Assembly: GCA_013360745.1 (NCBI GenBank)
Contig: JABWBA010000004.1
Location: forward strand, 13,275-77,274
Direction of reading: 5' to 3'
Origin: Chthonomonadales bacterium
Lineage (GTDB): Bacteria; Armatimonadota; Chthonomonadetes; Chthonomonadales; CAJBBX01
Length of the DNA stretch: 64,000 bases
Every line of letters starts with the position of its first letter. Position 1 is the stretch's first letter. Below the pieces are notes generated by a model that saw only the letters and a list, made by a program, of their open reading frames with translations, did no database searches and was not told the DNA's origin. Position numbers and translations under genes: made by a program. This document shows, piece after piece, positions 5,442 through 63,697 of the stretch.

Positions 5442-5646
5442 GATCGTGATCGCCGACCGACTCGCGTCAGAGAGGCGTTGCGGGTATTGTACCGGTTTCG
5501 GAACGGAGGGCGATGCCGCAGCGCGCGACCCGCGCTTGCCCGAAATAGGTTCGCGTCATCACGAAGTCTCCCTTCAGGGCCGCAGGAGACTGCGTTTCGC
5601 CGGCGAATCAATACGGGTACGAGGAGTATCTGAGGAGGGCGATATC

Positions 5647-6807
5647 ATGACGACCACATTACAGGCACATTCCACTACGCTGGAGGCGATATGCTCTCGT
5701 AAAGGGCTCAGCGAGGCGTTGCAGCTCGTCGGGCATGCCGTTTCGGAGCGGAACCCCCTCCCCATCCTTACCCACGTGCTGATCCAATCCGTGGAAGGAG
5801 GCCTGCTCCTGAGCGCCAGCGATCTGGAGCTCGGCATCGCGACGACGGTACCCGCCGATGTGCGGCAGCCCGGGGCGATCACGGCGCCCTCGAAGCTGAT
5901 CTCCGATCTTCTGGCCACGTTCCCCGATGGCGAGATCACCATCGCCGCCGATCGGAGCCACTCTACGGCCATCCGCATACCGGGTTCGGATTACCGCATC
6001 GCAGGCCAGGCGCCCGAGGAGTATCCAACACTGCCGGAAGTGGACGACACGGTCGGCTTTCGAGTGGCGCAGCCCCTGCTCCGACAGGCCATACGTCAGA
6101 CGATCTTCGCCGTGCTGGCGGAGAACAAGGGCCGTCCGCAACTGACCGGCGTTCTGCTCGAGTTCGGCGAATCGACGCTCACCATGGTCTCGACGGATAC
6201 CCTGCGCATGTCGATCCGCTCTGCCCCCGTATCCGATGCGAAGGGCGCGATGCAGGTGATCGTGCCGGCCCGGGCGCTTGCCAACCTCGCACGATGCCTC
6301 AATGACGATACCGGCGATGTGGCGGTTCGATTGACCGAAAAGCAGGCCGAGTTCGTAACGTCCGGAGGGGTTCGCGTATACACGCGCCTCATCGAGGGCC
6401 AGTTCCCCGCCTATCGGCGCGTGATCCCGCAGAACTGGCAGACGCGGATCAGTCTGCCCACCGGCCCGTTCCAGCAAGCGGTCAAACGGGTTTCGATCGT
6501 CGCGCGCAGCGCGGACAATCGCATGGAGATGCGAACCCATGAGCAGCGATTGGTCTTACGCGCCGAAGCGTCGCCCGGCGGCAAGGCGGTCGAGGAGATC
6601 GAAGCCCTCGTGGACGGCCCCGACATCGAAACGGCGTTCCACACCGACCATCTGCTCGATATACTGTCCGCCATCGATACGGAAGGCGTGGACTTCGAGA
6701 TGACCGATCCGGGTAAGGCCGCGCTCATCAGGCCGCGGGTCGAACCCGATCAAGAGGCTCGCCACGGCGAATACTGCGGCGTGCTCATGCCGCTGCAGCT
6801 CATCTAG
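5647..6807 (+). CDS. dnaN: DNA polymerase III subunit beta (sliding clamp)
   Basis: Clamp homology throughout (LPILTHVLIQSVEGGLLLSASDLELGI..., three-domain length of 386 aa). The start is set at ATG 5647 behind GAGGAGG. The upstream 80 codons of the track ORF look non-coding. Confidence 0.9.
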   Translation: MTTTLQAHSTTLEAICSRKGLSEALQLVGHAVSERNPLPILTHVLIQSVEGGLLLSASDLELGIATTVPADVRQPGAITAPSKLISDLLATFPDGEITIAADRSHSTAIRIPGSDYRIAGQAPEEYPTLPEVDDTVGFRVAQPLLRQAIRQTIFAVLAENKGRPQLTGVLLEFGESTLTMVSTDTLRMSIRSAPVSDAKGAMQVIVPARALANLARCLNDDTGDVAVRLTEKQAEFVTSGGVRVYTRLIEGQFPAYRRVIPQNWQTRISLPTGPFQQAVKRVSIVARSADNRMEMRTHEQRLVLRAEASPGGKAVEEIEALVDGPDIETAFHTDHLLDILSAIDTEGVDFEMTDPGKAALIRPRVEPDQEARHGEYCGVLMPLQLI

Positions 6808-7123: not shown

Positions 7124-8197
7124 ATGCGCACGTTGTTGAAAGGGAGCCTGGCGCTCCTGACCGTCTTTTGCCTCGCGACTCTCTCTGTCCAGTCTCTTGC
7201 CGGTGATACCTACAATCGCGTGACGAAGACCCTCTACGCAGGACAGAAGACCCCGGTCGGAACCCTCACTGTGGAGCAGTACAAATCTGGCGGTAAGAAG
7301 ATGCTCCGCGTCACCTACGATACGTCCTCATCCGGCTGGGTGATGAACACCACCCACCTGTATGTGGGGACCAGCGCACCGTCGAAGTCCGCCCCCGGCC
7401 GCTTCCCCTACAAGCACGAGGGCCTCGATAAGGTCACCGTAGACGTCTACGAGATCCCCATTGGCTGCAAGCCGCTCTACATCGCCGCCCACGCCGATGT
7501 GTGTGAAGATACTGCCGGCTCTGGCGGATGCGTGCCGGACTACGCAGCAGCGGCAGCTGCATTGCCAGGCGGCCTCACGGACCTGAATGTTGAGTGGGCA
7601 GGCTACATCAGCAGCTACTTCACCTCGCATACGACGTTCGGAACATTCTTGTCGTGGTGCCTCGACTACAACGGCCCGATTGGCAATGAGGTGACCTATG
7701 GCACCGCCTATGTCTTCTCGCTCCTTCCCGACGGTTCGCCGAACCCAGCGGCTGCAGCGCTTCTAGGCTCTCAGGCGGCTGCCCTATCTGGATCACCTAT
7801 TAACTATCTGAACTACCTGATCAATCAGCCCTATGTCATCGACTGCGGCAACGGCGGCCCATACTCTGTGGTCGACATCCAGGTCGCCATCTGGCACATC
7901 ACCAATGGACTGGCAATCTCGAGCTTCGGCGCAAACGTGGCGAATGTCACCGCTATTCTGGACGACGTGATCGCCAACGGTGCGAGCTTCGTGCCGACTT
8001 GCGACGATCTTGCCCTGGTAGTCGGCGATCCTCAGACCCCGGATCCCGGCGGTAACTACCAGCATAATCAGCATTTCGGATTTGCCGTACCCGTAACCGG
8101 CGAAGTGGTTCAGGGCGATTGCGAGACGGCATGGGCGAAGGGCACCTGCCAGTTCCGCACGGGCTGGGGTTCCTACTTCAAGTACTGCGTCAAATAG
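7124..8197 (+). CDS. Secreted hypothetical protein with possible thioester-domain (TED/TQXA-like) signature
   Basis: Signal peptide MRTLLKGSLALLTVFCLATLSVQSLAG. It contains WCLDY (Cys179) and DIQVAIWHITNG (Gln253), which resemble the CxD and TQxA(I/V)W motifs of internal Cys-Gln thioester domains. A C-terminal ETAWAKG...GWGSYFKY motif is also present. Confidence 0.7.
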   Translation: MRTLLKGSLALLTVFCLATLSVQSLAGDTYNRVTKTLYAGQKTPVGTLTVEQYKSGGKKMLRVTYDTSSSGWVMNTTHLYVGTSAPSKSAPGRFPYKHEGLDKVTVDVYEIPIGCKPLYIAAHADVCEDTAGSGGCVPDYAAAAAALPGGLTDLNVEWAGYISSYFTSHTTFGTFLSWCLDYNGPIGNEVTYGTAYVFSLLPDGSPNPAAAALLGSQAAALSGSPINYLNYLINQPYVIDCGNGGPYSVVDIQVAIWHITNGLAISSFGANVANVTAILDDVIANGASFVPTCDDLALVVGDPQTPDPGGNYQHNQHFGFAVPVTGEVVQGDCETAWAKGTCQFRTGWGSYFKYCVK

Positions 8198-15711: not shown

Positions 15712-16464
15712 ATGAGACGCGCCATCATCGGCTTGCTGCCTGCATTTTGGTTTGTCGGACACCCGGGCGCCGCCGCTCAGACTCCGGATGAATCGGCGGC
15801 TCCGATCCTCGCCCCGGCGATCCGCGTGGCCAGCTCAGGGACGCTATCGCTCATCAGACGATCTGATGTTCAGAATGGCCTTCGCCTCAGCCTTCGTCAG
15901 AGGAACGAGCTGCAGGCGCTCCTCGCGGCGCCGCAGCAGTTCCGCCTATTGCTGAACCTGGGCGCGGATTCTGCGAACGGCGGCCCGCGTCAGGCCGAGG
16001 ATCAGGTCGAACAGCAGGCCGGAGACCATGAGGCTCGCTTGCGGGCGATCCTGGATGAGAAACAATGGGCGCGCCTGGCTCAGATCCGCCTCCAATGGCA
16101 AGGGGCGCTGGCGCTCGCGGAGCCTGCAACTGCCGATCTTGCGGGGCTCTCCGATAACAGCCGCAACGCGGTCGTGGCGATTGCTGCCGAGTACGAGGAC
16201 GTTCGCCGAGAGGTGTTCGCTTCCCTGACAAGGAAGCGTGAGGAAGACTCATCGAACGGAACTCGGCGGCGAATCGCGATTCGGATCGACACTGCGGAAC
16301 TGGAGCAACCGGGTTCGCCCGCCTACAAGAAGCTGGCGGCCGCCAAAAAGGACGCCGAGGAGCGCATCATCAAGAGCCTTCTCGATACAGAGAAGAAGGC
16401 ATGGGCGAAGGCCTGCGGAGCCCCGTTTGTCTTCCGCGCTGATATCAAAGGGCTCCGCTTCTGA
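15712..16464 (+). CDS. Hypothetical secreted protein
   Basis: Signal-like N-terminus MRRAIIGLLPAFWFVGHPGAAAQ, a good RBS, and GC3-rich codons. I recognise no family. Confidence 0.5.
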   Translation: MRRAIIGLLPAFWFVGHPGAAAQTPDESAAPILAPAIRVASSGTLSLIRRSDVQNGLRLSLRQRNELQALLAAPQQFRLLLNLGADSANGGPRQAEDQVEQQAGDHEARLRAILDEKQWARLAQIRLQWQGALALAEPATADLAGLSDNSRNAVVAIAAEYEDVRREVFASLTRKREEDSSNGTRRRIAIRIDTAELEQPGSPAYKKLAAAKKDAEERIIKSLLDTEKKAWAKACGAPFVFRADIKGLRF

Positions 16465-16599: not shown

Positions 16600-17496
16600 A
16601 TGGGAAACATCGATACAGTAAAGTCCACCTGGAGGAACAAGGTCGGTCTGGCCGAGATGTTGAAGGGCGGCGTGATCATGGATGTTGTCACCGTCGAACA
16701 TGCGACGATCGCCGAAGAGGCCGGCGCCTGTGCCGTCATGGCGCTGGAGCGAGTGCCGGCCGATATTCGCGCTACGGGCGGTGTCGCGCGGATGTCGGAC
16801 CCGCGTCTCATCAAAGAGATCATGGCGGCGGTGTCCATACCGGTGATGGCCAAGGCGCGCATCGGCCATTTCGCCGAAGCGCAGCTCCTGGAATCCCTGG
16901 GCGTCGATTTCATCGATGAGAGCGAGGTGCTCACTCCGGCCGACGAGGAATACCACATCAACAAGCACGCCTTCAGCGTTCCCTTCGTCTGCGGCTGCCG
17001 CAACCTCGGCGAGGCCCTTCGGCGGATCGGTGAAGGCGCGGCGATGATTCGGACGAAGGGCGAAGCGGGTACCGGCAACGTCGTCGAGGCAGTTCGCCAT
17101 ATGCGGGCTGTGATGGGCGGCATGCGGCGGCTGCAGGCGATGCCCGAAGAGGAGCTGATGACCGCCGCCAAAGAGATGGGCGCTCCGTACGATCTCGTCT
17201 GCGAGATACATCGGACGGGCCGCCTGCCTGTGCCGAACTTCAGCGCCGGCGGGATTGCGACTCCGGCTGATGCCTCTCTCATGCGTCAGCTGGGTGCCGA
17301 GGCGATCTTCGTCGGCTCCGGCATCTTCAAATCGGCCAATCCGGCGGCTCGGGCGAAAGCCATCGTCACAGCGAATACGTATTATGATAAGCCCGAGGTC
17401 GTCGCAGAGGTTTCTGAAGGTCTCGGTGACGCTATGTTCTCCATCGATGTCCGCAAACTCGATGAAGAAGACCGAATGGCCTCGCGCGGCTGGTAG
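16600..17496 (+). CDS. pdxS: Pyridoxal 5'-phosphate synthase lyase subunit
   Basis: [38 protein letters not shown]... is canonical PdxS. Confidence 0.95.
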
Positions 17497-17639: not shown

Positions 17640-19388
17640 ATGCCTATCGGCTCTGCATCAGGAATACCATACATGGGACCCATAGATCACGAGCCGCTCA
17701 TCGAGGGAGACGACGATTCGTCGTTCGGCAACGCGAGCGGTAAACGGCGTCAATCCGCATCGCGGCTTCTGACCGAGATCATCCAGGACACCACGCACGA
17801 CGACCCGCGTTTGGCCAAGCTCTATGCGCTCCGGATGATCATCGAACGCCAGCGCAAGGAGAGCGAAGAGGCCCAGCGCCTCAAGGCCGAATACGAAGAG
17901 ACCTTCAAACGCCTGACATCGCCTGCCAACCGGGTCGCGGTCTACCTCGGACCGGAGTCGGACGGAACGGCGTGTATCGCCATTGGCGACCAGGAGTACG
18001 TCGCAAGCGTCACCCCGGAGATGGAAGAGCGGACTCCTAAGATCGGCTCACGGGTGAAGGTGAACGAGGCGTTCGCGGTGATCGGCGATCTGGGCTATCA
18101 CCCTGCAGGCCCGCTGGTGAAAATCAGCGACGTGATCGACGACCGTCTTCTCCGTATCTCAACCGACCCTCAGGGTCTACAATCGCGCGTAATCCAGCGC
18201 TCCACGGATCTTCAAGACGTTACGCTGCACGCGGGCGACGAAGTGCGCCTCGAGCCGAATCTCAAGGTGGCCATCGAGCGATATCCGACGAAGGAGGCGC
18301 GAGACTACTTCCTCGAGGATGTCCCACCGCTGGAGTGGAGCCAGGTCGGCGGCCAGGAGCACGTCATCCAGGTGATTAACGACGCGATCCAGCTCCCGCT
18401 GCTCCATCCGGAACTCTATGCCCGATTTGAGAAGCGACCGCTCAAAGGGATCTTATTGTACGGCCCTCCCGGATGCGGCAAGACGTTGATCGGAAAAGCC
18501 ACCGCCTACAATCTGACGCGCGAATACCGAGAGCTTACCCACACGAAAGTCACTGAGTACTTTATGTATATCAATGGCCCCAAGGTACTGAGCATGTGGG
18601 TCGGTGAGACCGAACGGATGATCAGAGAGATCTTCGCAACGGCCAGGGAACGCGCAAGAGAAGGGCGCCTTGTATTCGTCTTTATCGACGAAGCCGAATC
18701 GTTGTTGCGAACTCGAACGTCGGGCCGGTGGTTCAACATCTCCAACACCGTGGTCCCTCAGTTTTGCGCCGAGATGGACGGTCTCGTAAGCCTGGACAAT
18801 GTCGTCGTCATCCTCACCTCCAATCGCCCGGACTATATCGATCCAGCCATCCTCCGGCCCGAACGGATTGACCGTAAGGTTAAGGTCAAACGGCCAGATC
18901 GGCAGGCCTCGCGGGACATTTTCGGCATCTATCTCCATTCGGGTATCCCCGTGGATCCGGATCTCGTTCGCCAGCATAAGGGCGACCCTGCCGCGGCGAG
19001 AGAGGAGATGCTTGACATCATCGTCGACTATCTCTGGCAGCGGAATACCGAAACGAGTTTTCTTGAGGTGTTCCTCCGTAACGGCAGCGTTGAGACGCTC
19101 TATTGGCGAGACCTCGTAAGTGGAGCCCTCATCCGTTCGGTTGTAGAACGAGCCAAGGATTTCGCGATACGTCGCAGCATTCAGAACCGCTCCGAAGTGG
19201 AGGGCATCACGGTCCACGACCTTCGAGAAGCGACCCGGATCGAGTACAAGGAAAATGAGATCTTCCCGAAAAGCGACGCTCAGGAGGACTGGTTGAAACT
19301 GCTCGACTACGATCCGGAAAACGTCGCCGCTGTTCGCCCTATTCGGCCTGAACGCAAACGCACCAGTTCAAAGCGCGATATTATCTAA
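17640..19388 (+). CDS. arc: Proteasome-associated AAA ATPase ARC/Mpa
   Basis: N-terminal coiled coil (RLAKLYALRMIIERQRKESEEAQRLKAEYEETFKRL) and an OB-like region. Walker A is GPPGCGKT and Walker B is VFVFIDEAES. It sits first in the pup-proteasome cluster. Confidence 0.9.
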   Translation: MPIGSASGIPYMGPIDHEPLIEGDDDSSFGNASGKRRQSASRLLTEIIQDTTHDDPRLAKLYALRMIIERQRKESEEAQRLKAEYEETFKRLTSPANRVAVYLGPESDGTACIAIGDQEYVASVTPEMEERTPKIGSRVKVNEAFAVIGDLGYHPAGPLVKISDVIDDRLLRISTDPQGLQSRVIQRSTDLQDVTLHAGDEVRLEPNLKVAIERYPTKEARDYFLEDVPPLEWSQVGGQEHVIQVINDAIQLPLLHPELYARFEKRPLKGILLYGPPGCGKTLIGKATAYNLTREYRELTHTKVTEYFMYINGPKVLSMWVGETERMIREIFATARERAREGRLVFVFIDEAESLLRTRTSGRWFNISNTVVPQFCAEMDGLVSLDNVVVILTSNRPDYIDPAILRPERIDRKVKVKRPDRQASRDIFGIYLHSGIPVDPDLVRQHKGDPAAAREEMLDIIVDYLWQRNTETSFLEVFLRNGSVETLYWRDLVSGALIRSVVERAKDFAIRRSIQNRSEVEGITVHDLREATRIEYKENEIFPKSDAQEDWLKLLDYDPENVAAVRPIRPERKRTSSKRDII

Positions 19389-19440
19389 GCCGTCCGATCG
19401 CCCCGTTAGTGCGGAGCGATACGCGCGGCGGCTATGATCC

Positions 19441-21003
19441 ATGACGCGACTCCTGGGACTCGAAACGGAATACGGCCTGGACATCGATGGGATTGAACCC
19501 GGACAGATGATCGCGGAGAGCCGAGAGGTCGTTCTCTGCTGTCCGCAACCCTATTTCGACAAATGGGACTACGCCCATGAGGATCCGCGTCGGGACATCC
19601 GGGGATACCGAGTCAAACGGCTCCGCCGACCCGCTTCCGAGGTCGAGTACGCTTCGGCTGACCCGCGATTTCGGTCGATCAGCGAGGAGCACGCCGATCG
19701 GATCCTCCCATGTGGTGCGCGATTGTATAACGACCATGGCCATCCCGAGTTCAGTACGCCCGAATGCGTATCGCTGCAGGATCTGGTCCGCTATGACCGG
19801 GCCGGTGAGCGGATCGTGCGCCAGTGCGCGGCCTTCTACACTCAGCGTACCGGCCGCGCGACCCGGATCGTCAAGAACAACACGGACTTCCACGGGTCCA
19901 GCTATGGCTCCCATGAGTCGTATCTGGTCACCAGAACCATTCCGGCCGATACTCTTATCGCCGCGCTCGCCCCGTTCCTCGCCACCCGTCAGATATTCGC
20001 TGGCGCCGGTAAAGTCGGTCACGACGTGCGGAGGCATAGAGGCTCCTCCTATCAGATCAGTCAACGCGCCGAGTACATCGATACCGTCGCAAGTGTCGAC
20101 ACGCTCACGCGGCGGGCTCTGGTCAACACGCGAGACGAACCTCATGCAGATGAGAACCTGTATCGCCGTCTCCATATTATCGTCGGCGACGCGAACATGA
20201 GCGAATGGGCCACGGCGATGAAGGTGGGCTCCCTGGCGCTCGTCCTCGATGCGCTGGAAGCCGGCTGGACGCCTCCGTTCACCCTTACCAACCCCGTGGC
20301 GGCGGTGCGGGCGATCGCCATGGATCCGTCCCTCAGCGCGCTGGTGCCGGTCGACGCCGTCCATCGCAGCGGCAGTCATCCGTCAGCGATGTCGGCGATT
20401 GAGATCCAGCGAGCCTACAGGGACGCCGCAGGCGAATGCAGCTCCGATCTTCGGGAGAGAGACTGGGTGCTGTCGGAATGGACCGAAGCCCTTGATGATC
20501 TGATGGAAGACCCGGAACGATGCGGTGATCGGATCGATTGGATCGCCAAACGGCGAATGATCCAACTCTTCGAAGAGCATACCGACGGCCAGGCGGATCC
20601 TCAGGGGGCGCTTCAGAGCATCGACCTCGCTTATCACGACACGGATCCTGCCGAAGGTCTATACCACGCGTTGGAGGACGAGGGTGCGATTCGGCGAGTA
20701 GTGACCGACGATGCGATCGAGCAGGCACTCAGGGAGCCGCCTATCGCGACGCGGGCGTTCGTCCGCGGCCATTTCGTCTCTCATCATAGAGACAGGATGA
20801 TCGCCGCCAGCTGGTCGGAGATCGCGTTCCGATCGGAGGACGGCGCCCGAGTGTTCGATATGAGCGGACTGGTCGACGGCTCGCTCGAGCCAATGAACAG
20901 GGACCTGGCCGCGGCGTGTTCCCTGGCGGATACAGAACGCGCGCTTCGGCGATATCGGGCCACAGGAACACGTATAGAAGGTACGAAACAGGATCAAGAA
21001 TGA
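19441..21003 (+). CDS. dop: Pup deamidase/depupylase Dop
   Basis: Member of the PafA/Dop family (GLETEYG ... HPEFSTPEC). It has a roughly 25-residue longer insert between these two motifs than its paralog at 22815, and it lies immediately upstream of the modifier gene, as in known loci. Confidence 0.85.
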   Translation: MTRLLGLETEYGLDIDGIEPGQMIAESREVVLCCPQPYFDKWDYAHEDPRRDIRGYRVKRLRRPASEVEYASADPRFRSISEEHADRILPCGARLYNDHGHPEFSTPECVSLQDLVRYDRAGERIVRQCAAFYTQRTGRATRIVKNNTDFHGSSYGSHESYLVTRTIPADTLIAALAPFLATRQIFAGAGKVGHDVRRHRGSSYQISQRAEYIDTVASVDTLTRRALVNTRDEPHADENLYRRLHIIVGDANMSEWATAMKVGSLALVLDALEAGWTPPFTLTNPVAAVRAIAMDPSLSALVPVDAVHRSGSHPSAMSAIEIQRAYRDAAGECSSDLRERDWVLSEWTEALDDLMEDPERCGDRIDWIAKRRMIQLFEEHTDGQADPQGALQSIDLAYHDTDPAEGLYHALEDEGAIRRVVTDDAIEQALREPPIATRAFVRGHFVSHHRDRMIAASWSEIAFRSEDGARVFDMSGLVDGSLEPMNRDLAAACSLADTERALRRYRATGTRIEGTKQDQE

Positions 21004-21012
21004 GGTGCGTCC

Positions 21013-21192
21013 ATGATAATCCATATTGAGGATCGACTACGGCGCCCGGCCCCGACGGGACCGGAGCGGAAGCCGGATACCGGCCCGTCCAAGCCCGATG
21101 TGCAGCGGCCAACATCGGATGAGCTCCTGCGAAGGATGAAGAAGGTTGACCCGGAGTCCGCACGGCGATACCGCCAACGAAGCGGCCAGTAG
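21013..21192 (+). CDS. pup: Prokaryotic ubiquitin-like modifier, UBact/Pup type (59 aa; not in ORF track)
   Basis: GAGGTG SD 5 nt upstream. Translation is MIIHIEDRLRRPAPTGPERKPDTGPSKPDVQRPTSDELLRRMKKVDPESARRYRQRSGQ, ending in Gly-Gln. It sits exactly between dop and prcB. Confidence 0.8.
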   Translation: MIIHIEDRLRRPAPTGPERKPDTGPSKPDVQRPTSDELLRRMKKVDPESARRYRQRSGQ

Positions 21193-21195
21193 CTC

Positions 21196-21984
21196 ATGTC
21201 CCATCGCGACCTTCGCGCGCTGATCAGCGGCGAGACCCCTGTAATCCCGATACCGGAGCCGGCGGCGCCGAATCCGGCTGCCACGGCGCCGCATCCGTCG
21301 CATGGATCCGCAGTGCACGGCACCACGGTCATTGCCGTCAAATACGCGGGCGGCGTGATCAACGTCGGAGATCGACGCGCGACCGCCAACTATGCCGTGA
21401 TGTACGATCGTGCGGAGAAGGTGCTCCCTATCGACGACTACACACTCCTCGCCATCTCCGGATCCTACGCGCGCTCGATGGAGGTGGTTCGGTACCTCCG
21501 CCATTCGTTCCGGTACTTCGAACGCTCCCAGCTCCAGCCGATGAGCCTGGACGGCAAGCTCTCCGAGCTCGCGAAGGTGATCGCGGCCGGGCTGCCCGCC
21601 GCAATGCAGGGGATCGGCGGCTTTCTACCGTTGCTGAGCACGTATGACCGAACGGCCGGAGAAGGGCGGATTTTCTTCTACGATGTCATGGGAGCCCGCT
21701 TCGAGAGCGGAGAGTTCGCTGCGGCCGGGTCCGGCTCCATGCAGATCCGCGGGGTGTTCAACTATATCGCGCGAACCCGGGGTCCTTTTCACACGATGGA
21801 TCGCCGTACAGCCCTTCGCGAGGCGCTGTTCCTCCTCGATATCGCAGCGGATCTGGACGCGGCGACCGGCGGATGGTCCAAAGTGCTGCCGCTGGCAAAG
21901 ACGATTAGCGCCGAGGGCATCGAGGACGTACCGGAACCCGAGCTGGCAGAGCTGACCAGCGAGATTACGGAACTAGAGGGCTAA
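21196..21984 (+). CDS. prcB: 20S proteasome subunit beta (with 42-aa propeptide)
   Basis: ...SAVHG/TTVIAVKYAGGVINVGDRRAT matches the propeptide cleavage site and catalytic Thr1 context of bacterial PrcB. Confidence 0.9.
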   Translation: MSHRDLRALISGETPVIPIPEPAAPNPAATAPHPSHGSAVHGTTVIAVKYAGGVINVGDRRATANYAVMYDRAEKVLPIDDYTLLAISGSYARSMEVVRYLRHSFRYFERSQLQPMSLDGKLSELAKVIAAGLPAAMQGIGGFLPLLSTYDRTAGEGRIFFYDVMGARFESGEFAAAGSGSMQIRGVFNYIARTRGPFHTMDRRTALREALFLLDIAADLDAATGGWSKVLPLAKTISAEGIEDVPEPELAELTSEITELEG

Positions 21985-21990
21985 TACCGC

Positions 21991-22803
21991 ATGGCGTTCA
22001 CTCCATTTGACTTCAACGAAGCCGTGAGCCAGCGACGGGACCATGCGAACGAGGGCCTGCGTTTCGGCAGCCCTGTTGTCGGCGTCAGCTGCACCGAGGG
22101 CCTCGCGATCGTCACCATACGGCGATCCCAGCGCAAGGTGTTCGAAATCTACGACCGCATCATATACTCGGCTATCGGGAACCAGTCGGATATCGAGGCG
22201 ATCCGGCTCGGAGCCGTCGATCTCGCGGCGCGGGAAGGTTTTCAGCGGAGTCCGGACGACGTGACGGCGCAGCGCCTCGTCGGATTTTCCCTCAGCCCGG
22301 CGCTGAAGGAGATATTCCGAGATCAATGGAGAGCCCCGTCCATAATCCGCGCGCTCTTCGGCGAGCTCGGCGATGTAGCCGAACAAGATCGGTTCTATAT
22401 CCTGAACTATGACGGCGAGTTCGCAGCGCACACCGATCGGGCCGCGCTGGCCGGATCCGCTGCCGCAGAAGATCGGATGCTCGAAACGCTCCATGCTTCG
22501 ATGGGGGATTCCCTTCCTGATCTTTCACATGCGATCGAGGCAGCGCTCCGCGCCTGGGCGACCGGGAGTATCGTCCTGAACGAAAGACACGACGATGATT
22601 CCGATAGCGCGGCATACGACGATCGGGCCCTCCGCAGTCGGCTTCGCGAAGAGCTTCGATCGGCCCGAGTCGAGGTTGGGATCCTCGAACGGGCTCCGAA
22701 CCGTGAAGCCCGTTTTCGCCTCCTTGAGTCGGCCTATCTCGATCCTATCGTTGCTCTGCTGATCGAGGACAACGCGGCCGGCAACGGATTAGAGCAGAGC
22801 TAG
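21991..22803 (+). CDS. prcA: 20S proteasome subunit alpha
   Basis: MAFTPFDFNEAVSQRRDHANEGL...KVFEIYDRIIYSAIG resembles the N-terminus and core of bacterial PrcA. It starts 6 nt after prcB. Confidence 0.85.
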   Translation: MAFTPFDFNEAVSQRRDHANEGLRFGSPVVGVSCTEGLAIVTIRRSQRKVFEIYDRIIYSAIGNQSDIEAIRLGAVDLAAREGFQRSPDDVTAQRLVGFSLSPALKEIFRDQWRAPSIIRALFGELGDVAEQDRFYILNYDGEFAAHTDRAALAGSAAAEDRMLETLHASMGDSLPDLSHAIEAALRAWATGSIVLNERHDDDSDSAAYDDRALRSRLREELRSARVEVGILERAPNREARFRLLESAYLDPIVALLIEDNAAGNGLEQS

Positions 22804-22814
22804 GCGTTGCATCG

Positions 22815-24359
22815 ATGCTCCCACGTGTCGTCGGTCTGGAGACGGAGTTCGGATGCTTCGTGCGGGATTCGGATCTTGGCGAGCCGGAAGACATCGTCGA
22901 GATCGTAAAGAACACCATATTCCAGAACCGACGGGTTGGGGCGCTGGATATCCACACGCGCGATTTTGCGTTCGAACCCGCCGGAGCCGGGGGCTTCCTC
23001 ATCAACGGCGGCCGTCTCTATATCGACGCCGTCGGGAGTCACGAGGAATACGCGACACCCGAATGCGCCTCTCTGACGGACCTTGCGCTCTACGATCGCG
23101 CAGGACGAATGCTCCTACAGTCGGCGCTGGATGACCTGCAGATCGCCGATCGCGTGAGTTTTCACGATAACTCCGTCGATCATTTCGGCGGGCATACGTT
23201 CGGATGCCACGAGAACTATCTCATCCGAGTGGATGAGGATCGGTATCTTCATGCGATCGGCCTCCTGCTGCCGTTCTTGATTACACGGCAGATATTCGCC
23301 GGAGTAGGACGGGTTGGGGGGCATCGTCTCACACGTCCGGACAGCCGGTCCAATATCATGAGCCTCAGCGATCGTGATATCGACTACGTCTGGGTCAGCA
23401 ACTTCTATGGTGTCGAGATCGATCCGGAGGTCGACTTCCAGCTGTCTCAGCGCGCGGACCACATAGTCCGGGCGGTTTCGTCCCGAGTTCGATTCAATCG
23501 GGCCATCATCAACCCCAAGTGGGATGCGTACTACAGCCATGAAGGCGCCCACCGTCTCCATATTCTCTTCGGCGAGGCGAACAAGAGCGAATACGCAACG
23601 ATGCTCAAGGTCGGCGCTACGGCCGCAGTCCTGGATATCATCGAGCGTGGGGAAGCTCCCGAAGACCTGATTCTTGAAGAGCCGCTTCGTGATCTCCGAT
23701 CGGTATCGCGCGATTCCACGTACCGCTGGCTGGTCACGCTGCTGGATGGCAGCACCATCGGTGCGGTCGACCTCCAACGGCGCTATCTCGCAACAGCGCA
23801 GCGCTGTCTCAGCGGTCAGGACGCGGAGACCGATTGGGTCCTCAGCGAATGGGAACGGACGCTGGATGATCTTGAGCGGGATCCTATGTCAACCTCCGAT
23901 CGCCTCGATTGGTCCGCCAAACGGTCGTTGTACGAAGGGTTCATCGCATCCGAAGGGCTATCCTGGCAGGATGACATGCTCCACAGCCTGGACCTCGAGT
24001 ACCACAATATCAACCCGGCCGCAGGCCTGCATGCCGCGCTGGAAGACCAGGGCCGAATGATCCGTTACTCCGACGATGTCTCCGTCGCAAGGGCGATGAC
24101 ATCGCCCCCGGCATCGACACGGGCCCATGCCAGAGGCGGGATCGTCTCGGCGCTGATCGAACGCCCGGGCCTGGGTTACATCGTCGACTGGGATGGCGTT
24201 TTCGTCGAGTCCCGACGTCAGATCAATCTGACCAACCCGCTGCGCACCTATGCGGCCGAGGCACAGCGTTTCATCGAACGGCTGCCGACACCGTCGACTG
24301 CCGAGAAGGGCGCCGGCGCGAAACGCCGGAAGAGCCGAGGTCAGGACCCCGCGGAGTGA
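22815..24359 (+). CDS. pafA: Pup--protein ligase PafA
   Basis: PafA/Dop family (GLETEFG ... GSHEEYATPEC) without the Dop-type insert. It is the last gene of the cluster. Confidence 0.85.
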   Translation: MLPRVVGLETEFGCFVRDSDLGEPEDIVEIVKNTIFQNRRVGALDIHTRDFAFEPAGAGGFLINGGRLYIDAVGSHEEYATPECASLTDLALYDRAGRMLLQSALDDLQIADRVSFHDNSVDHFGGHTFGCHENYLIRVDEDRYLHAIGLLLPFLITRQIFAGVGRVGGHRLTRPDSRSNIMSLSDRDIDYVWVSNFYGVEIDPEVDFQLSQRADHIVRAVSSRVRFNRAIINPKWDAYYSHEGAHRLHILFGEANKSEYATMLKVGATAAVLDIIERGEAPEDLILEEPLRDLRSVSRDSTYRWLVTLLDGSTIGAVDLQRRYLATAQRCLSGQDAETDWVLSEWERTLDDLERDPMSTSDRLDWSAKRSLYEGFIASEGLSWQDDMLHSLDLEYHNINPAAGLHAALEDQGRMIRYSDDVSVARAMTSPPASTRAHARGGIVSALIERPGLGYIVDWDGVFVESRRQINLTNPLRTYAAEAQRFIERLPTPSTAEKGAGAKRRKSRGQDPAE

Positions 24360-24461
24360 GAGGACAATCGGCGTTGCTCACGATCGGACGGGTACAATGC
24401 TCCGATCCGGATGGATACGCTGCTTGCCGATTCCGGTCAGGGAAATGAGGAGTCTGTGAAT

Positions 24462-24983
24462 ATGAACGACAGAACAGTTACCATGCGCGGCACACCGCTG
24501 CACCTCCGGGGTATCGAGCTCCGTGTCGGCGACCGTGCACCCGATATACGGCTTCAGCAGCGAAGCCCGGAGGGGCTGAAAGATATCACCTGGGACGATT
24601 TCGACGGCAAGAACGTAATCCTCAGCGTCGTGCCGTCGCTCGACACACCCGTCTGCGAGAAGCAGACCGTACGCTTCAACGATGAGGTCATCAGCCTGCC
24701 CGCCAACGTCGAAGTGCTGACGGTTAGTATGGACCTGCCCTTCGCCCAGGCTCGTTTCTGCTCCGAGAAAGGGACCCATCAGGTTCAAACGGCTTCCGAT
24801 CACCGTACCGCAGAGTTCGGCGAGGCCTACGGGGTTCTGATCGAGGAACTCCGGCTTCTCGCCCGCGCCATCTTCGTCGTCGATGTCAACAGGCAGATTC
24901 GCTACGTGGAGTACGTGCCCGAGGTAACCGACCAGCCCGACTACGATCGTGCTCTGGCAGCCGCGCGGGAACTGACAGACTGA
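24462..24983 (+). CDS. tpx: Thiol peroxidase (atypical 2-Cys peroxiredoxin)
   Basis: VVPSLDTPVCEKQT active-site context; 173 aa from ATG 24462 behind GAGGAG. Confidence 0.9.
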   Translation: MNDRTVTMRGTPLHLRGIELRVGDRAPDIRLQQRSPEGLKDITWDDFDGKNVILSVVPSLDTPVCEKQTVRFNDEVISLPANVEVLTVSMDLPFAQARFCSEKGTHQVQTASDHRTAEFGEAYGVLIEELRLLARAIFVVDVNRQIRYVEYVPEVTDQPDYDRALAAARELTD

Positions 24984-25035: not shown

Positions 25036-26763
25036 GTGAAGCGACCTTCGTACGGTGATGCCATCGCGCTGGCGGCGCTGGGCTTCCTTTGTTTTCTCTG
25101 GCGTCTCGGCGCTCCCGGGCTGTTTGACTTCAATGAAGGACTCTATGTCGAAGCCGCACGGGAGATGGTCCTCCGTTCTGACTACATCACTGGCCGCGTC
25201 AACGGTGTCCCGTTCTACGACAAGCCACCGCTCGCCCTGTGGCTCGTTGCCCTTAGCTTCAAAGCGCTCGGCCAGAGCGAAATGGCGGCCCGGCTGCCCG
25301 TAGCTCTCTCTGCGCTGATCGCCGTGTTCGGGGCTTACTGGTTCGGCCTTCAAGGCTGGAACCGGCGCACCGGACTCCTTGCCGCCGTCTTCTGCGCCTC
25401 CAGCCCCATCTTCGTGGGCACCGCGCGGCAGATGACCATGGACATCCATCAGTCAGCAACGGTGACGCTCGCGATGATCTGCATGTTCCTCGGCATGCGC
25501 GCCGACGAAGCGAAGAAATCCCGTGCGGCTGCCGTGTGGTGGATGGGCTTCTGGGCGATGTGCGGCGCCGGTTTTATGGCCAAGAGTTTCCCGGGCCTTC
25601 TCCCGATTCCCATAGCCGTCGTCGTACTGGCGGTCCGGTCGCGACTCGCTCCGCTGCCAACGCTGCGCGCATGGTGGTCCGCACGTCCTGTGCATGGCAT
25701 GCTGGCGCTCGCGGCTGTGGTGGCGCCCTGGCACCTTGCGGCTTATCATAAGGACGGCTCCTACTTTGTCTATGAGTACTGGACCCTTCACCATGTCGCT
25801 CTCTTCAAGGGAACTCAGTTCGATCATGTCCAACCGTTCTGGTACTACGGACCCGCCCTACTCGGCGGCTTCTACCCCTGGAGCATCCTGACGCCGCTTG
25901 GGCTGCGCCGTTATGACGCCAGCGCCGCCGACCGTACGGTCCAGATCCTTATGTGGACCTGGGCGCTCGTTACCGTTGGTATCTTCAGCCTGATGACATC
26001 CAAGCTCGTCAGCTACCTCCTCCCGATGTATCCGGCCATCGCCATCATCACTGCGGCCGGAGTGGATCGGGCATTATCGAAGGCACAGGGAGCGAAGAAG
26101 GCCCGTGCTGTTCCGTTACTCCCACTATCGATCTCGCTGATCGCCGTGCTGCAGCTGGTTGCGATCGCCGCGCTCTGGCAGTATGTCACGCCCCGCCTCC
26201 ACGAGATCCGTGATCCCGAAGCCTTGCCTCTGCTGGCGCCCAATCTGGTCCGTTATTTGTGGCGCGCGGTTGGTCTGCTAGCCTGCGGATCGACATTCGC
26301 TGCGTTTCTCGCATGGCGACGACCCGATCGAGGCGTCACAGCCCTCGTCCTTACATTCCTGGGCTTCCTGATGTTGAGCTGGGAGCAAGGCCTCCCGGCC
26401 TATGATCAAGCCGTGAACCTGCCGCTCCGCAAAGCGGTCCGCAAGGCCGATGCGCTTTCCGGCTCGGGTTCGCCGCTCGTGGTGTTCATCGGGCGGCCGC
26501 GCCGACCCAGCGTGTTTTTCTATCTGGACGATCGTCGCTTGATCAGATCCGCATCAGCTGGCAGACCTAACGACCCCATTATGTTGGAGACGATCGATCA
26601 AGAGCCCCTCCGGCGCTATGTATCGGAGCACGGCCGCACCGTAATCCTTGCAGACCGACAGCGTGGCAAGGACGCCCTTGGCTCGATTGCCCCTTACGAA
26701 GAAGCCTACCGTTCCGGCCGCTGGTCGGTGTTGGTCACGGAACCGGGAGCCTCGAAGCCGTGA
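25036..26763 (+). CDS. GT39-family (ArnT/PMT-like) membrane glycosyltransferase, copy 1
   Basis: Multi-pass protein with the first-loop motif FNEGLYVEAAREMV...GVPFYDKPPLALWL typical of ArnT/PMT enzymes. Confidence 0.8.
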   Translation: MKRPSYGDAIALAALGFLCFLWRLGAPGLFDFNEGLYVEAAREMVLRSDYITGRVNGVPFYDKPPLALWLVALSFKALGQSEMAARLPVALSALIAVFGAYWFGLQGWNRRTGLLAAVFCASSPIFVGTARQMTMDIHQSATVTLAMICMFLGMRADEAKKSRAAAVWWMGFWAMCGAGFMAKSFPGLLPIPIAVVVLAVRSRLAPLPTLRAWWSARPVHGMLALAAVVAPWHLAAYHKDGSYFVYEYWTLHHVALFKGTQFDHVQPFWYYGPALLGGFYPWSILTPLGLRRYDASAADRTVQILMWTWALVTVGIFSLMTSKLVSYLLPMYPAIAIITAAGVDRALSKAQGAKKARAVPLLPLSISLIAVLQLVAIAALWQYVTPRLHEIRDPEALPLLAPNLVRYLWRAVGLLACGSTFAAFLAWRRPDRGVTALVLTFLGFLMLSWEQGLPAYDQAVNLPLRKAVRKADALSGSGSPLVVFIGRPRRPSVFFYLDDRRLIRSASAGRPNDPIMLETIDQEPLRRYVSEHGRTVILADRQRGKDALGSIAPYEEAYRSGRWSVLVTEPGASKP

Positions 26764-28544
26764 GCGCCCGGCTCATCACCCTCCAGGCGTGCTTGCTGAC
26801 TGCTCTATGCTACGTCGCTTTCTGGAACGGGCTCGGCCATCTCGACATCACCGATCTGGACGAAGGTCTCTACGCCGCTGCCGCTCGTGACATGGCGCTG
26901 ACGGGAGACTGGATTACGCCGCGCGTCAACGGCGCGCCGTTTTTCGAGAAGCCTCCGTTGCTGTACTGGCTCTCCTCTTCATCGATCCGCTGGCTCGGGC
27001 CGACCGAAGCGGCTGTCCGGACGCCAACCGCCCTCGCCGCCTCCGTCCTCGTATTCATGACATGGCTGGTCGGCATCCGGTATCTGGATCGTCGGGCGGG
27101 CTTCCTGAGCGCGGCGTTCCTGGCCTTGTCCCCGATCTCGGCAGGCTCCGGGCGACTCGTCACTACGGACATGCTGCTCACCCTCACGTTGTCTGCCGGG
27201 ATCCTCCTTCTGTTCGCGGCAAGAAATGCGCGCGGCAGCCGGGCGATACTCGCATCCGCAGCCGTCGGCTTCCTGTGCGGTCTTGCGGTATTGGCCAAAG
27301 GAGCGCCGGGAATCATGATCCCAGCCGGTGTCGTCGGTATCTGGACACTGCTTCGTCGCCGGCGCGGCATCGGCGCGCCATCGATCGTCCGCAACCCGGC
27401 GCTCGCCGGACTCGCGCTTATGGTCTTCCTGGCGACCATGCTCCCGTGGCATTTGGCGGCATGGAGGGCGAATGGTCGGAGCTTTACCGAGGAGTATGTG
27501 CTCCGACAGCACATTGGACGGTTCAAGGGCGGCGATGTTAGCCACCACGCACCGCCCTACTTCTTCATTCCCGGCTTTATTGCGGGGTTTTTCCCGTGGA
27601 GCCTGTTTACTGCCGCGGCTCTCTGCAGCCGGCGAGGAGCCTCACAGATGGCAAACGAGTCTGGAGGAGCATCAGAACCGGCGGAGAATCCCACGGTGGA
27701 ACTCCGATCGCTTCTCAGGACCTGGTTCTGGGTGGTATTCCTCGTATTTTCTGCCAGCGGATCCAAACTGATCAGCTACATCCTCCCGCTCTACCCGCCG
27801 GCAGCGCTTCTGGCGGGCGATTGGGCGACGGCTGCACAGGCATCGGTACGTGGCCGCCGGATCCTGATCACGGGTGGATTCATCGCGGCGACCCTGCTGG
27901 CGTTGACCCTGGGCCTCTTCTCGTGGCCCGATCCTCTCATCCGTATCATCGAGCGGTATGCAAACCGTCCGATCGAGGCGCCGCCGCTGGATGCAGCGAT
28001 ATTGCATACGGTCCAGATTCTAGCCGCAACGGCGGCTGGCGGAGTTCTGTCCTTTTGTGTGTCGATGAGCCTCCGGCGTGCTGCCATCGCATGGACCTCG
28101 CTTCTCGCAGGGATGGCGATGTTCTTAATGATCGCCGTCCATCGAGGCATTCCGCTTATCGACCATGAGACGGTCGGATCACTGCACCGGCTCGCGGCAG
28201 CCGCAGGAGCGCGAGCTGGAGATGAGGCAAGCGTCGCGTTCCTCGTCGGGCCGCCCCGACGACCGAGCGCCCTTTTCTATCTCCCGGACGATTTGCTGAA
28301 GGAACGAAGGGTTACAGAACGCGCCAGAGCGCTGATCGCTACCGTGCCGGCAGGTCGGTCAAGCCCCCGCACGCGTGATCTCTGGGTAGTGGCGCCAAAA
28401 CGCGCGGCCTCGATCCTCAGACAGGCAGGTGCGGTGTGCACTGTCCGCGAATCGGACTATGAGTTGTGGGTGCTTCGCGCCATCCCGCCTTCGAAGCCGT
28501 CCTCAGACCGGCGCTCCCACCGCGAAGAAGGAACAACATCGTGA
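26760..28544 (+). CDS. GT39-family (ArnT/PMT-like) membrane glycosyltransferase, copy 2
   Basis: DEGLYAAAARDMALTGDWITPRVNGAPFFEKPPLLYWL. The GTG start overlaps the upstream stop (GTGA). It is a paralog of the preceding gene. Confidence 0.8.
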   Translation: MSARLITLQACLLTALCYVAFWNGLGHLDITDLDEGLYAAAARDMALTGDWITPRVNGAPFFEKPPLLYWLSSSSIRWLGPTEAAVRTPTALAASVLVFMTWLVGIRYLDRRAGFLSAAFLALSPISAGSGRLVTTDMLLTLTLSAGILLLFAARNARGSRAILASAAVGFLCGLAVLAKGAPGIMIPAGVVGIWTLLRRRRGIGAPSIVRNPALAGLALMVFLATMLPWHLAAWRANGRSFTEEYVLRQHIGRFKGGDVSHHAPPYFFIPGFIAGFFPWSLFTAAALCSRRGASQMANESGGASEPAENPTVELRSLLRTWFWVVFLVFSASGSKLISYILPLYPPAALLAGDWATAAQASVRGRRILITGGFIAATLLALTLGLFSWPDPLIRIIERYANRPIEAPPLDAAILHTVQILAATAAGGVLSFCVSMSLRRAAIAWTSLLAGMAMFLMIAVHRGIPLIDHETVGSLHRLAAAAGARAGDEASVAFLVGPPRRPSALFYLPDDLLKERRVTERARALIATVPAGRSSPRTRDLWVVAPKRAASILRQAGAVCTVRESDYELWVLRAIPPSKPSSDRRSHREEGTTS

Positions 28545-30748
28545 TACTGGCCCCGCTGATGAGTGTCCTGCCACTGATGGTCCCGGACCTGCCAACGGGT
28601 CCGACGCCTCTGCCGGCGCCGATGCGCCATTTCCCCGATCGGCTCCATGCCTTCGTCTGGCGCAACTGGCAACTTGCGCCCGCAAACCGCATGGCGAAGG
28701 TGGTCGGCGCCCGGACTGCCGATATCGTCCAGCTCGGACGTTCGATGGGACTGACGGGTCCGCCCCGTATCAGCCCCGATCAGTTCCGAAGGTCCCACGT
28801 CTCGATCATTCGTCGAAACTGGCACATCCTCCCCTATGAGCAGCTGCTGACGCTCCTTGGCTGGACCTCGGCTCAGCTAGCCTATGCTCTGCGTGAGGAC
28901 GACTTCCTCTACATCAAGCTCGGGAGTCTCAAGCCGCAGTGCGATCCGCTGGTCTTCCATGCGCCCGATGCCCATGCACAGCTTCAGGCTGCTCGGATCG
29001 CTGCGTCTCTGAAGGAGCTCTTCCCGAACGGCGTCGGGATGATGCCGAAAGCGCCCTTCTCCTTTGTCAAGGAGCTGAGCACAGGACCTGTTGATCGGGG
29101 GTCTTCGGCGAGAGATCGCCCTCCACGATATTGCTACTCCTATTTCGGTCTGTACGGCGATCCATTCGGCCCGGAGGCCGGTGACCCGTATCCGCCCGCC
29201 TATCTGACCCGGCTATCCCGTCTCGGGGTCAACGGAGTCTGGTTGCAGGCGGTGCTGCCACAGCTCCATCCGCTGCCCTGGGCTCCTGAGCTCAGCCAGG
29301 GAGCCGAAGTCCGCCTCAAGAAGCTCGGCGCTATGGCGCGGCAGGCTCGGCGGAGCGGGATCGGCCTGTACCTCTATCTCAACGAGCCCCGTGCCATGCC
29401 GCTGAGCTTCTATGCACATCACCCTGAGCTGAAAGGCGCGGACGAAGGGGACCACGCAGCCCTATGCACCAGCGCCGAACCGGTTCGCCGATACCTCACC
29501 GATGCCATCGAAGCGATTTGCCGCGCTGCGCCCGATCTGGCGGGTTTCTTCACCATCTCGATGTCCGAGAATCTCACCAACTGCTTTTCGCATGGCGGCG
29601 CGGCCCGTTGCCCCCGATGCTCTACGCGGACCGGCAGCGAGGTTATCGGTGAACTCCACGAGGCGCTATGGAACGGCATACGCAATGCGGACGGACAGCA
29701 GCAGCTAATCGCCTGGGATTGGGGCTGGCCGGACGCATGGGCTCAGGACGCGATCGCGCACCTGCCGACGGGCGTCACCTTCATGAGCGTTTCCGAATGG
29801 AGCCTCCCCATCACGAGAGGCGGGGTGGCCTCAGAGGTGGGCGAATACTCGATCAGCTCGGTCGGACCCGGTCCGCGCGCCGAACGCCACTGGGCCTGCG
29901 CGCAGGAGCGCGGACTGAAAACCCTGGCCAAGGTACAGGCAGGTGCGACCTGGGAGATGTCCGCCATGCCCTATGTGCCCGTACTGCGGCTGATCGCTGA
30001 GCACGCTGCCAACCTGCGGCGGGCCGGCGTCCAGGGCGCCATGCTCGGATGGACCCTTGGCGGATATCCATCGCCCAATCTCGAGGTGTTCAACCGGGTA
30101 CTCGACGGCGAGGATCCGGAGCGCTCTCTACAGGCGGTAGCCGAGAAACGATATGGCAAGGACGCCGCGGATGAAGTCGTACGGGCCTGGGACGACATGA
30201 GCCAATCGTTCCGGGAGTTCCCTTATCACATCGGCGTTGTATACACCGGTCCGCAGCAGCTCGGGCCAGCGAATCCTCTCTGGTTGGAGCCGACCGGGTA
30301 TCGAGCCACCATGGTAGGTTTCCCCTATGACGACCTCGACGCCTGGCGATCCATCTATCCGCCTGATGTCTTCATCGCGCAAATGGACAAGACGGCCGCA
30401 GGATTCACCACGGCCGCCAATCGGTTAGAGGCGTTGTCCGATCGTGGCGTCGGCAGCCACTCCGCAGTACAGCTCGAGGCCGGCCTCGCGCGTGCGTGTG
30501 CGATCCACTTCACATCTGTGGCCGATCAGGCCCGATTCATCCTCCGACGTAGTCAGGCTAGAACAGATACAGTGCGTGATGAGCTGAGAGACATCCTGCA
30601 TCGCGAGATCGAGCGGGCGCGCCGACTCTACAACCTCCAATGCGAAGACCCGCGTATCGGGTTCGAAGCAACCAATCAGTACTACTACCTGCCGCTGGAC
30701 CTCGTCGAAAAAGCCCTCAACTGCAGAGAACTGCTCTCCAGACTCTAG
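28541..30748 (+). CDS. Hypothetical protein, putative clan GH-A-like TIM-barrel glycoside hydrolase
   Basis: LGVNGVWLQAV...GIGLYLYLNEPRAM (an NEP acid/base-like motif) and ...FMSVSEWS. The start is uncertain: GTG 28541 overlapping the upstream stop, or ATG 28559. Confidence 0.55.
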   Translation: MILAPLMSVLPLMVPDLPTGPTPLPAPMRHFPDRLHAFVWRNWQLAPANRMAKVVGARTADIVQLGRSMGLTGPPRISPDQFRRSHVSIIRRNWHILPYEQLLTLLGWTSAQLAYALREDDFLYIKLGSLKPQCDPLVFHAPDAHAQLQAARIAASLKELFPNGVGMMPKAPFSFVKELSTGPVDRGSSARDRPPRYCYSYFGLYGDPFGPEAGDPYPPAYLTRLSRLGVNGVWLQAVLPQLHPLPWAPELSQGAEVRLKKLGAMARQARRSGIGLYLYLNEPRAMPLSFYAHHPELKGADEGDHAALCTSAEPVRRYLTDAIEAICRAAPDLAGFFTISMSENLTNCFSHGGAARCPRCSTRTGSEVIGELHEALWNGIRNADGQQQLIAWDWGWPDAWAQDAIAHLPTGVTFMSVSEWSLPITRGGVASEVGEYSISSVGPGPRAERHWACAQERGLKTLAKVQAGATWEMSAMPYVPVLRLIAEHAANLRRAGVQGAMLGWTLGGYPSPNLEVFNRVLDGEDPERSLQAVAEKRYGKDAADEVVRAWDDMSQSFREFPYHIGVVYTGPQQLGPANPLWLEPTGYRATMVGFPYDDLDAWRSIYPPDVFIAQMDKTAAGFTTAANRLEALSDRGVGSHSAVQLEAGLARACAIHFTSVADQARFILRRSQARTDTVRDELRDILHREIERARRLYNLQCEDPRIGFEATNQYYYLPLDLVEKALNCRELLSRL

Positions 30749-63633: not shown

Positions 63634-63697
63634 CAAATAGGCGTTCTATCCACATTGATGTCTTGACCGGAATGGTCCACATCAGGAGGATGGACCC

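Follow-up and report, generated by a model that had tools for sequence, protein, structure and literature searches.

A probable UBact-type tagging and 20S proteasome operon in a Chthonomonadales bacterium of the phylum Armatimonadota

In UBact systems, the gene for a protein tag adjoins genes for homologues of Mpa, Dop, PrcB, PrcA and PafA in a host outside the Actinobacteria. The tag was reportedly named UBact, in Gram-negative bacteria, by Lehmann, Udasin, Livneh and Ciechanover in 2017. Pupylation genes outside the Actinobacteria were found by Iyer et al. (2008). Fuchs et al. (2017; PMC5666114) described the proteasome subunits of armatimonadetes, nitrospirae and verrucomicrobia as a cluster of their own, and Hecht et al. 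(2020; PMC7947786) listed Armatimonadetes among the phyla with Dop/PafA homologues. Here, a six-gene locus of a Chthonomonadales bacterium was analysed, located at positions 17640-24359 of a 64-kb stretch of contig JABWBA010000004.1. The whole stretch is referred to as the window. The locus held all components of a UBact system and is of a type that is already known from the literature, Pfam and NCBIfam. It is very probably the UBact-proteasome operon of this bacterium, located on the chromosome and inherited vertically, and the Gram-negative equivalent of the Pup-proteasome system of Actinobacteria. Related loci were obtained from a genome scan with the Dop protein, using one genome per species. 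The scan returned 491 stretches encoding a Dop relative, from which 80 loci were fetched for comparison and labelled L001 to L080.

The actinobacterial Pup-proteasome system of Mycobacterium tuberculosis comprises the same five enzyme families in the same gene order as the locus. Both have a Dop loop, the GhExE motif with a catalytic Asp and a Thr1 preceded by a propeptide. In both, the tag ends in G-[QE], and the Gln form needs deamidation. However, all five window enzymes missed the equivalog cut-offs of the actinobacterial system (TIGR03689, TIGR03688, TIGR03686, TIGR03690 and TIGR03691). In contrast to the actinobacterial Pup locus, pafBC was absent next to the window pafA and tpx was present instead. 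In both the archaeal PAN-20S system and the locus, an AAA+ unfoldase bearing an OB ring is paired with a 20S core of the Thr1 type. PAN models were secondary matches for the ATPase, with 170 compared to 437 bits, and the archaeal beta subunit was a secondary match for PrcB, with 57 compared to 155 bits. Archaea rely on beta-grasp SAMP/ubiquitin-like tags with E1-like activation and do not pair a disordered tag with a ligase of the glutamine synthetase fold.

The tag was identified by profile searches. It matched PF20513 with 71.1 bits (cut-off 27.8, E=6.6e-20) and NF033388 with 70.6 bits (cut-off 35). The identical protein NUQ69490.1 is already named 'ubiquitin-like protein UBact [Chthonomonadales bacterium]' in NCBI. 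The C-terminus is RRYRQRSGQ, and the UBact-type tail recognised in a first-pass annotation of the window was borne out by both profiles. The C-termini of 71 homologous tags from related loci were RSGE (43 tags), RSGQ (25) and RTGQ (3). Hence, 43 of the 71 end in Glu and 28 in Gln, a dimorphism as in Pup. Among 30 UBact sequences, 15 columns were invariant and the end was always G[EQ]. UBact was represented by 113 clusters at 50% identity in the representative library, and most matches aligned through the last residue. The window tag is basic, with an isoelectric point (pI) of 10.8 and a net charge of +6, and the homologues averaged a pI of 10.3. In contrast, actinobacterial Pup is strongly acidic with a pI of about 4. 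The tag ends in SGQ and Pup in GGQ, both sharing G-[QE]. No Pup chain was matched when all PDB chains were searched with the single tag (phmmer) and with a 30-sequence profile, and no Pup family of Pfam matched the tag even at E<=10. An identity as Pup was rejected on these results. An hhalign alignment with M. tuberculosis Pup placed the last 27 columns in register (DLL...R.Y.Q..GQ) with P=0.009 and a probability of 4.4%. This alignment is compatible with a very distant kinship at most and is no evidence of membership. By its profile matches, the tag is UBact. The locus is an ordinary member of its kind, and nothing of substance sets it apart from described UBact loci.

Six open reading frames (ORFs) on the + strand form the locus (ORF list for 15-27 kb). 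The gaps between them are 52, 9, 3, 6 and 11 nucleotides (nt) in order, in exact agreement with the one-strand layout given by the first-pass annotation. Its gene identities, arc(mpa), dop, modifier, prcB, prcA and pafA, were recovered as Pfam and NCBIfam family matches (Table 1). The order mpa-dop-tag-prcB-prcA-pafA was present in 48 of 48 related loci holding all six genes. These 48 of the 80 fetched loci included metagenome-assembled genomes (MAGs) of Abditibacteriaceae, Capsulimonadaceae, Gemmatimonadota and Latescibacterota. The genes also follow the order of pupylating organisms, in which it is reported to be rigidly conserved (PMC3511204). The terminator scan found no + strand terminator-like site in any intergenic gap of the six-gene locus, which is compatible with co-transcription as one transcript. 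The promoter scan returned no sigma-70-like site at all, and the intergenic gaps gave nothing useful. Altogether, the six-gene tagging and proteasome locus is intact, and its description in the first-pass annotation was confirmed throughout. The host had been assigned to one of the rare non-actinobacterial lineages with a proteasome. The non-actinobacterial part of this statement stood; the rarity did not, given the 491 Dop-encoding stretches and 4940 PafA-like proteins with E<=1e-10 among 8000 candidates tested.

Mpa starts with a helical region, followed by two OB domains and the AAA module. Its motifs include Walker A (GPPGCGKT) and Walker B (FIDEAES) as well as a W-V-G pore loop, which is aromatic. 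The best NCBIfam match was TIGR03689 pup_AAA with 436.7 bits (cut-off 504.75), and residues 72-574 aligned to M. tuberculosis Mpa with 328 bits. The C-terminus is KRDII (19374-19388), RDII being found in the window and GQYL in actinobacterial Mpa. The Mpa homologues of L001 to L079 end in a conserved [RK][NDS][IV][IV], with RNII as the commonest form and RNVI, KNII and RDII also present, suggesting a conserved docking function. PrcB had the bacterial 20S beta subunit TIGR03690 as its best NCBIfam match, with 155.5 bits below the cut-off of 191.9. It aligned to the beta subunits of Rhodococcus and M. tuberculosis with 114 and 107 bits, respectively, with HG/TTV at the processing site. The propeptide of 42 amino acids (aa) ending in HG, as proposed in the first-pass annotation, was recovered with TTV starting at residue 43. 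Asp59 and Lys75 are placed at +16 and +32, the right spacing for the proteasomal Asp17 and Lys33. The best NCBIfam match of PrcA was TIGR03691 20S_bact_alpha with 80.7 bits and E=1.1e-22 (cut-off 139.05). PrcA scored 20.8 bits with Pfam Proteasome, below the gathering score of 22.4, and 46 bits with M. tuberculosis PrcA (E=3.8e-11).

The two Pup_ligase paralogs were distinguished using Table 1 of Hecht et al. (PMC7947786), which lists positions shown experimentally to separate Dop from PafA activity. The upstream paralog reached 413.3 bits with the Dop model TIGR03688 (cut-off 492.3) compared to 324 bits with the PafA model TIGR03686. It reached 309 bits with Acidothermus Dop (4b0r) compared to 226 bits with Corynebacterium glutamicum PafA. 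It holds 88 residues from GLETEYG to HPEFSTPEC and the downstream paralog 61 residues from GLETEFG to SHEEYATPEC, a difference of about 26. The first-pass annotation had counted about 25 extra residues upstream, taken as the Dop loop, and no such insert downstream; both observations were reproduced and its Dop-versus-PafA assignment was upheld. The motif KWDYAHEDPRRDIRGY of the upstream paralog aligned to the Dop loop, which spans roughly 40 residues. The loop carries a conserved W-D-[YF]..E-[DN]-P..D-x-R-G motif, with W-D-Y..E-D-P in the window. Other Dop-type residues were S27, V31, the I84-equivalent, D-H-G-HPEFSTPE, Tyr25 and Ser46. Positions 9 and 12 hold Asn and Gly compared to the Dop-type Val and Ala. 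UBact-type Dop was the fastest-diverging gene product of the operon, with 44-54% identity. By every test applied, the upstream paralog is Dop.

The downstream paralog showed several PafA-type characters. It lacks the Dop loop, and Phe61 at position 7 corresponds to Phe54 of C. glutamicum PafA. The insertion next to the catalytic Asp, D71-A-V-G-S-H-E-E-Y-A-T, aligns to D64-V-G-S-H-P-E-Y-A-T of C. glutamicum PafA. Ala and Thr are present at positions 13 and 14, and the Asp of VDW at position 46 corresponds to Asp439 of PafA. The C-terminus aligns to C. glutamicum PafA up to its end, and H216..VSS of the alpha-loop is present. With the list of catalytic residues from PMC2588565 as a reference, GhExE was detected in both ligase-family enzymes, with the catalytic Asp in LYxD, and H-E-N and H-x4-[DE] were detected in the PafA-like enzyme. 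Residue states shared exclusively between groups counted 17 for orthology with actinobacterial PafA, 8 for pairing by lineage and 7 for a noise control. A strict four-group column test gave one column for orthology, none for lineage and one cross column, and thus did not discriminate. In a published maximum-likelihood tree that includes Nitrospirae, Dop and PafA each form a well-supported cluster (PMC7947786). Because the shared-residue counts favour orthology and the published tree has two clusters, we call the downstream gene product a ligase and a probable fast-diverging PafA orthologue, with a small probability kept for an independent origin.

The biochemical steps of the pathway were modelled by homology to the mycobacterial system (PMC3511204, PMC7947786), starting from the gene content, order, motifs, lineage and conservation observed here. 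UBact would be synthesised with a C-terminal Gln, which the Dop homologue would deamidate to Glu. The PafA-like enzyme would then use ATP to phosphorylate the terminal gamma-carboxylate and join UBact to a target lysine. An Mpa hexamer would bind the tag, thread it through the OB and AAA pore and feed the unfolded target to a PrcA7-PrcB7-PrcB7-PrcA7 particle. The beta subunits would self-process at Gly42/Thr43, exposing the Thr1 nucleophile. Dop would also remove and recycle tags.

The GQYL tail of actinobacterial Mpa docks on the 20S proteasome. Several observations weigh against the pathway modelled here, most of them on the downstream enzyme. The GQYL motif was absent from the C-termini of the window Mpa and the Mpa homologues of UBact loci. 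The alpha-loop of PafA is helical and marked by H, W, E, G, S, S, A, R and S. The PafA-like enzyme agrees in no more than 4 of 9 PafA-specific residues: it keeps H and the Ser-Ser pair, together with an unlisted V, but differs at W, E, G, A, R and the remaining S. The AlphaFold2 model (predicted local distance difference test, pLDDT, 84.6) had no helix at the alpha-loop residues 210-229 (pLDDT 64-86). Searched with Foldseek against PDB, this model showed template modelling (TM) scores of 0.77 to Dop and 0.69-0.74 to PafA. The NCBIfam model for Dop gave 296.9 bits and TIGR03686 for PafA 292.9 bits (cut-off 551.3). Against PDB sequences, the enzyme scored 232 bits with Dop and 204 bits with PafA. 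A hidden Markov model of 54 UBact-type PafAs, built from the window protein and 53 proteins from related loci, scored 334 bits with Acidothermus Dop and 338 bits with Mycobacterium PafA. At residues ~231-257 (23505-23585), the window PafA holds NPKWDAYYSH where both actinobacterial enzymes have NTRDEPHAD. The strand-4 H-E-N motif of Dop has Ser as its third residue ('GSHESY', ~19900-19915). Finally, no experimental work on any UBact system was found in the open-access literature, in line with the earlier remark that substrates and physiology are essentially unstudied. The third H-E-N residue varied among 79 Dop homologues (G30, N18, S13, C8, A5, D5) and was an invariant Asn in the PafA paralog. 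Comparison of AlphaFold folds was rejected as a discriminator of Dop and PafA, as the TM values did not separate them.

UBact-type ligases showed NPKWD[AS]YYS..HRLH..GE, conserved across 53 homologues, whereas Dop and PafA of Actinobacteria, and also UBact-type Dop, keep NTRDEPHAD..RRLH..GD. The average net charge of UBact-type ligases was -20 compared to -6 in 120 actinobacterial PafAs. The basic tag and the more acidic ligase may possibly reflect a charge co-adaptation. UBact systems could even represent a deeply diverged, electrostatically inverted pupylation and not a simple copy, a tentative idea that we regard as rather doubtful. It was considered because the tag is basic, the ligase is about 14 charges more acidic, the NTRDEPHAD active-site segment is replaced and the unfoldase has a different conserved tail (R-N/D-I-I). 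Since actinobacterial Dop and PafA are equally distant from the ligase, the split into hydrolase and ligase may have been refined, or may have arisen, separately in each lineage.

Such a separate origin would make the downstream Pup_ligase gene an independent paralog of a Dop-like ancestor, duplicated within the UBact lineages, with an activity that may differ from the Pup-type ligase. Within a lineage, the paralogs resembled each other about as much as orthologues do across lineages, with 303 bits for Acidothermus Dop and Mycobacterium PafA and 299 bits for Dop and PafA of L063, and PafA proteins of different lineages reached only 225-247 bits with each other. The predicted fold of the downstream enzyme was slightly nearer to Dop. 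In conserved columns, the unique changes of the two PafA groups were mostly different, counting 15 and 8. A neighbour-joining tree with two PDB-derived actinobacterial references grouped actinobacterial Dop and PafA with a bootstrap of 0.87. This grouping was distrusted as a record of history as the distances were saturated (37-42% throughout), the references few and the character counts opposite. Distance methods are crude in this setting, with few actinobacterial Dop references. The characters shared with actinobacterial PafA, namely the G-S insertion, Phe at position 7, Ala-Thr at 13/14, H..VSS, Asp at 46, the C-terminus and the lack of the Dop loop, are rare and speak against an independent paralog. 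The same holds for the exclusively shared residue states, the published tree and the gene position after prcA as in Actinobacteria. We consider an independent origin unlikely and retain the assignment as a PafA orthologue.

UBact tagging could also be mainly regulatory and non-degradative, as proposed for pupylation in Corynebacterium lacking a proteasome, with a proteasome that works largely independently of the tag. The Mpa without the GQYL docking tail would fit this, as would Chthoniobacterales loci with dop but without adjacent proteasome genes, mpa being present in two of six. However, the six genes are tightly packed and were collinear in every complete locus. The Mpa tail is itself conserved, suggesting that docking is conserved, and the catalytic residues and the propeptide of PrcB are intact. 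A mainly regulatory role is therefore very improbable, and degradation of tagged targets by the 20S proteasome is the preferred function.

The genome context was used to place the locus. The order Chthonomonadales belongs to the phylum Armatimonadota (taxonomy look-up). The best Dop relatives in the genome scan were Chthonomonadales MAGs with only 54% identity, and the nearest species-level relatives in the genome collection were 54-88% identical per protein. A neighbourhood of 12 genes was common to the window, L001 (Chthonomonadales bacterium) and L002 (Chthonomonas calidirosea MAG). It consists of icd, a conserved hypothetical gene, pdxS, the six genes, tpx and two PMT_2 glycosyltransferase genes. 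The flanks pdxS and tpx, proposed in the first-pass annotation, both exceeded their NCBIfam equivalog cut-offs. The Rel protein of the window is identical to NUQ69502.1, as the tag is to its NCBI entry, and PafA is near-identical to NUQ69493.1. The G+C content of the locus was 0.59-0.63, inside the window range of 0.59-0.66. The remaining window was ordinary chromosome with dnaN, secDF, recJ, rel, the suf operon, mnmA and purE. Because of the synteny with Chthonomonadales, the exact protein matches, the ordinary chromosomal genes and the even G+C content, we place the host outside the Actinobacteria and regard the locus as part of its chromosome, not as an island or contaminating DNA. The non-actinobacterial genome claimed earlier is thus sustained by the identical UBact and Rel proteins and by the flank synteny with L001 and L002.

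That a canonical Pup system was recently acquired from Actinobacteria, or that the contig is an actinobacterial contaminant carrying one, is extremely improbable. In favour of such a reading, every component has its best structural relatives in Actinobacteria, and an ancient transfer of Gram-negative proteasomes from Actinobacteria, which may have taken place, is the published view (PMC5666114, PMC7947786). Against it, the housekeeping genes of the flanks keep their synteny with Chthonomonadales genomes and are 79-88% identical, the composition is uniform over locus and window, and the operon occurs in Chthonomonadales, Abditibacteriaceae and Capsulimonadaceae alike. A canonical Pup system gained by recent transfer was excluded because the enzymes fell below the actinobacterial cut-offs and shared no more than about 41% identity with their counterparts in Actinobacteria (37-41% for the window Dop/PafA to Acidothermus Dop and C. 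glutamicum PafA in 360 well-aligned columns), the tag being UBact and not Pup. The first-pass annotation had named an actinobacterial host and such a transfer as the findings that would overturn it; a UBact tag and distant enzymes were found in their place.

Altogether, the locus mostly confirms existing annotation, as UBact-proteasome operons of Armatimonadota are already present in the literature and in profile libraries. Its value is practical: the six genes form a compact and intact set, and their lineage has a cultured relative in Chthonomonas calidirosea. The set could be used to reconstitute the UBact pathway. Reconstitution could show whether the basic tag, the acidic divergent ligase and the unfoldase tail other than GQYL work like the mycobacterial system.

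Table 1. Genes and features of the UBact-proteasome locus and its flanks, with positions in the window unless a related locus is named, and protein identity to L001.
Feature	Position	Strand	Length	Family matches and remarks	Identity to L001
Icd					79%
pdxS, upstream flank, outside the system	16600-17496	+		NF003215, 508.8 bits (cut-off 395)	88%
Mpa/ARC-type proteasomal AAA+ ATPase	17640-19388	+	582 aa	Pfam AAA, Prot_ATP_ID_OB_N, Prot_ATP_ID_OB_C; NCBIfam TIGR03689	72%
Dop-type deamidase/depupylase	19441-21003	+	520 aa	Pup_ligase, E=4.7e-143; TIGR03688 best; Dop loop	54%
UBact modifier	21013-21192	+	59 aa	PF20513 and NF033388 above cut-offs
20S proteasome beta subunit PrcB	21196-21984	+	262 aa	Pfam Proteasome, E=5.5e-23; TIGR03690	75%
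PrcB propeptide	21196-21321	+	42 aa	Thr1 codon 21322-21324
20S proteasome alpha subunit PrcA	21991-22803	+	270 aa	TIGR03691 20S_bact_alpha	64%
Putative PafA-like UBact ligase	22815-24359	+	514 aa	Pup_ligase, E=2.6e-122; without Dop loop	69%
tpx (thiol peroxidase), downstream flank, outside the system	24411-24983	+		NF001808, 188 bits (cut-off 123)	84%
Opposite-strand insert gene of related loci	L028 11517-12446; L014 12794-13924	-		Similar gaps in L027, L031, L036, L037 and L041

Two variants of the locus were observed among the relatives. In some Chthonomonadaceae, the operon is interrupted by an opposite-strand gene of ~1.4 kb between prcA and pafA (Table 1). At the end of its product, a Gly/Pro-rich stretch is followed by a hydrophobic segment and then a basic tail, resembling by eye a PEP-CTERM-type sorting signal. 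The Chthoniobacterales MAGs L059, L066, L068, L069, L071 and L080, an order that we take to belong to the Verrucomicrobiota, encode dop, with mpa also present in L059 and L071. UBact, prcB, prcA and pafA were not detectable within the fetched flanks of these six loci.

Other features of the window lie outside the tagging system. No tRNA gene and no Rfam family reached the threshold in the whole 64-kb window. Five ORFs of 250-824 aa, all on the + strand, had no Pfam match: 7124-8197, 15712-16464, 28466-30748, 54561-57035 and 57366-58964. For 15712-16464 and 28466-30748, NCBIfam was searched as well and gave no match. The ORF of 250 aa between icd and pdxS keeps its position in L001 and L002. 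The same synteny is kept by two tandem overlapping PMT_2/ArnT-like glycosyltransferase genes directly after tpx, at 25036-26763 and 26760-28544 on the + strand. The dnaN ORF at 5407-6807 (+) overlaps the end of an opposite-strand MFS transporter gene. Its first beta-clamp domain starts only at residue 95, so the true start probably lies ~90 codons downstream of the listed one. A protein of 1265 aa, encoded at 59839-63636 (-), matched a GH129-like glycoside hydrolase domain over residues 372-670, with long unassigned regions on either side.

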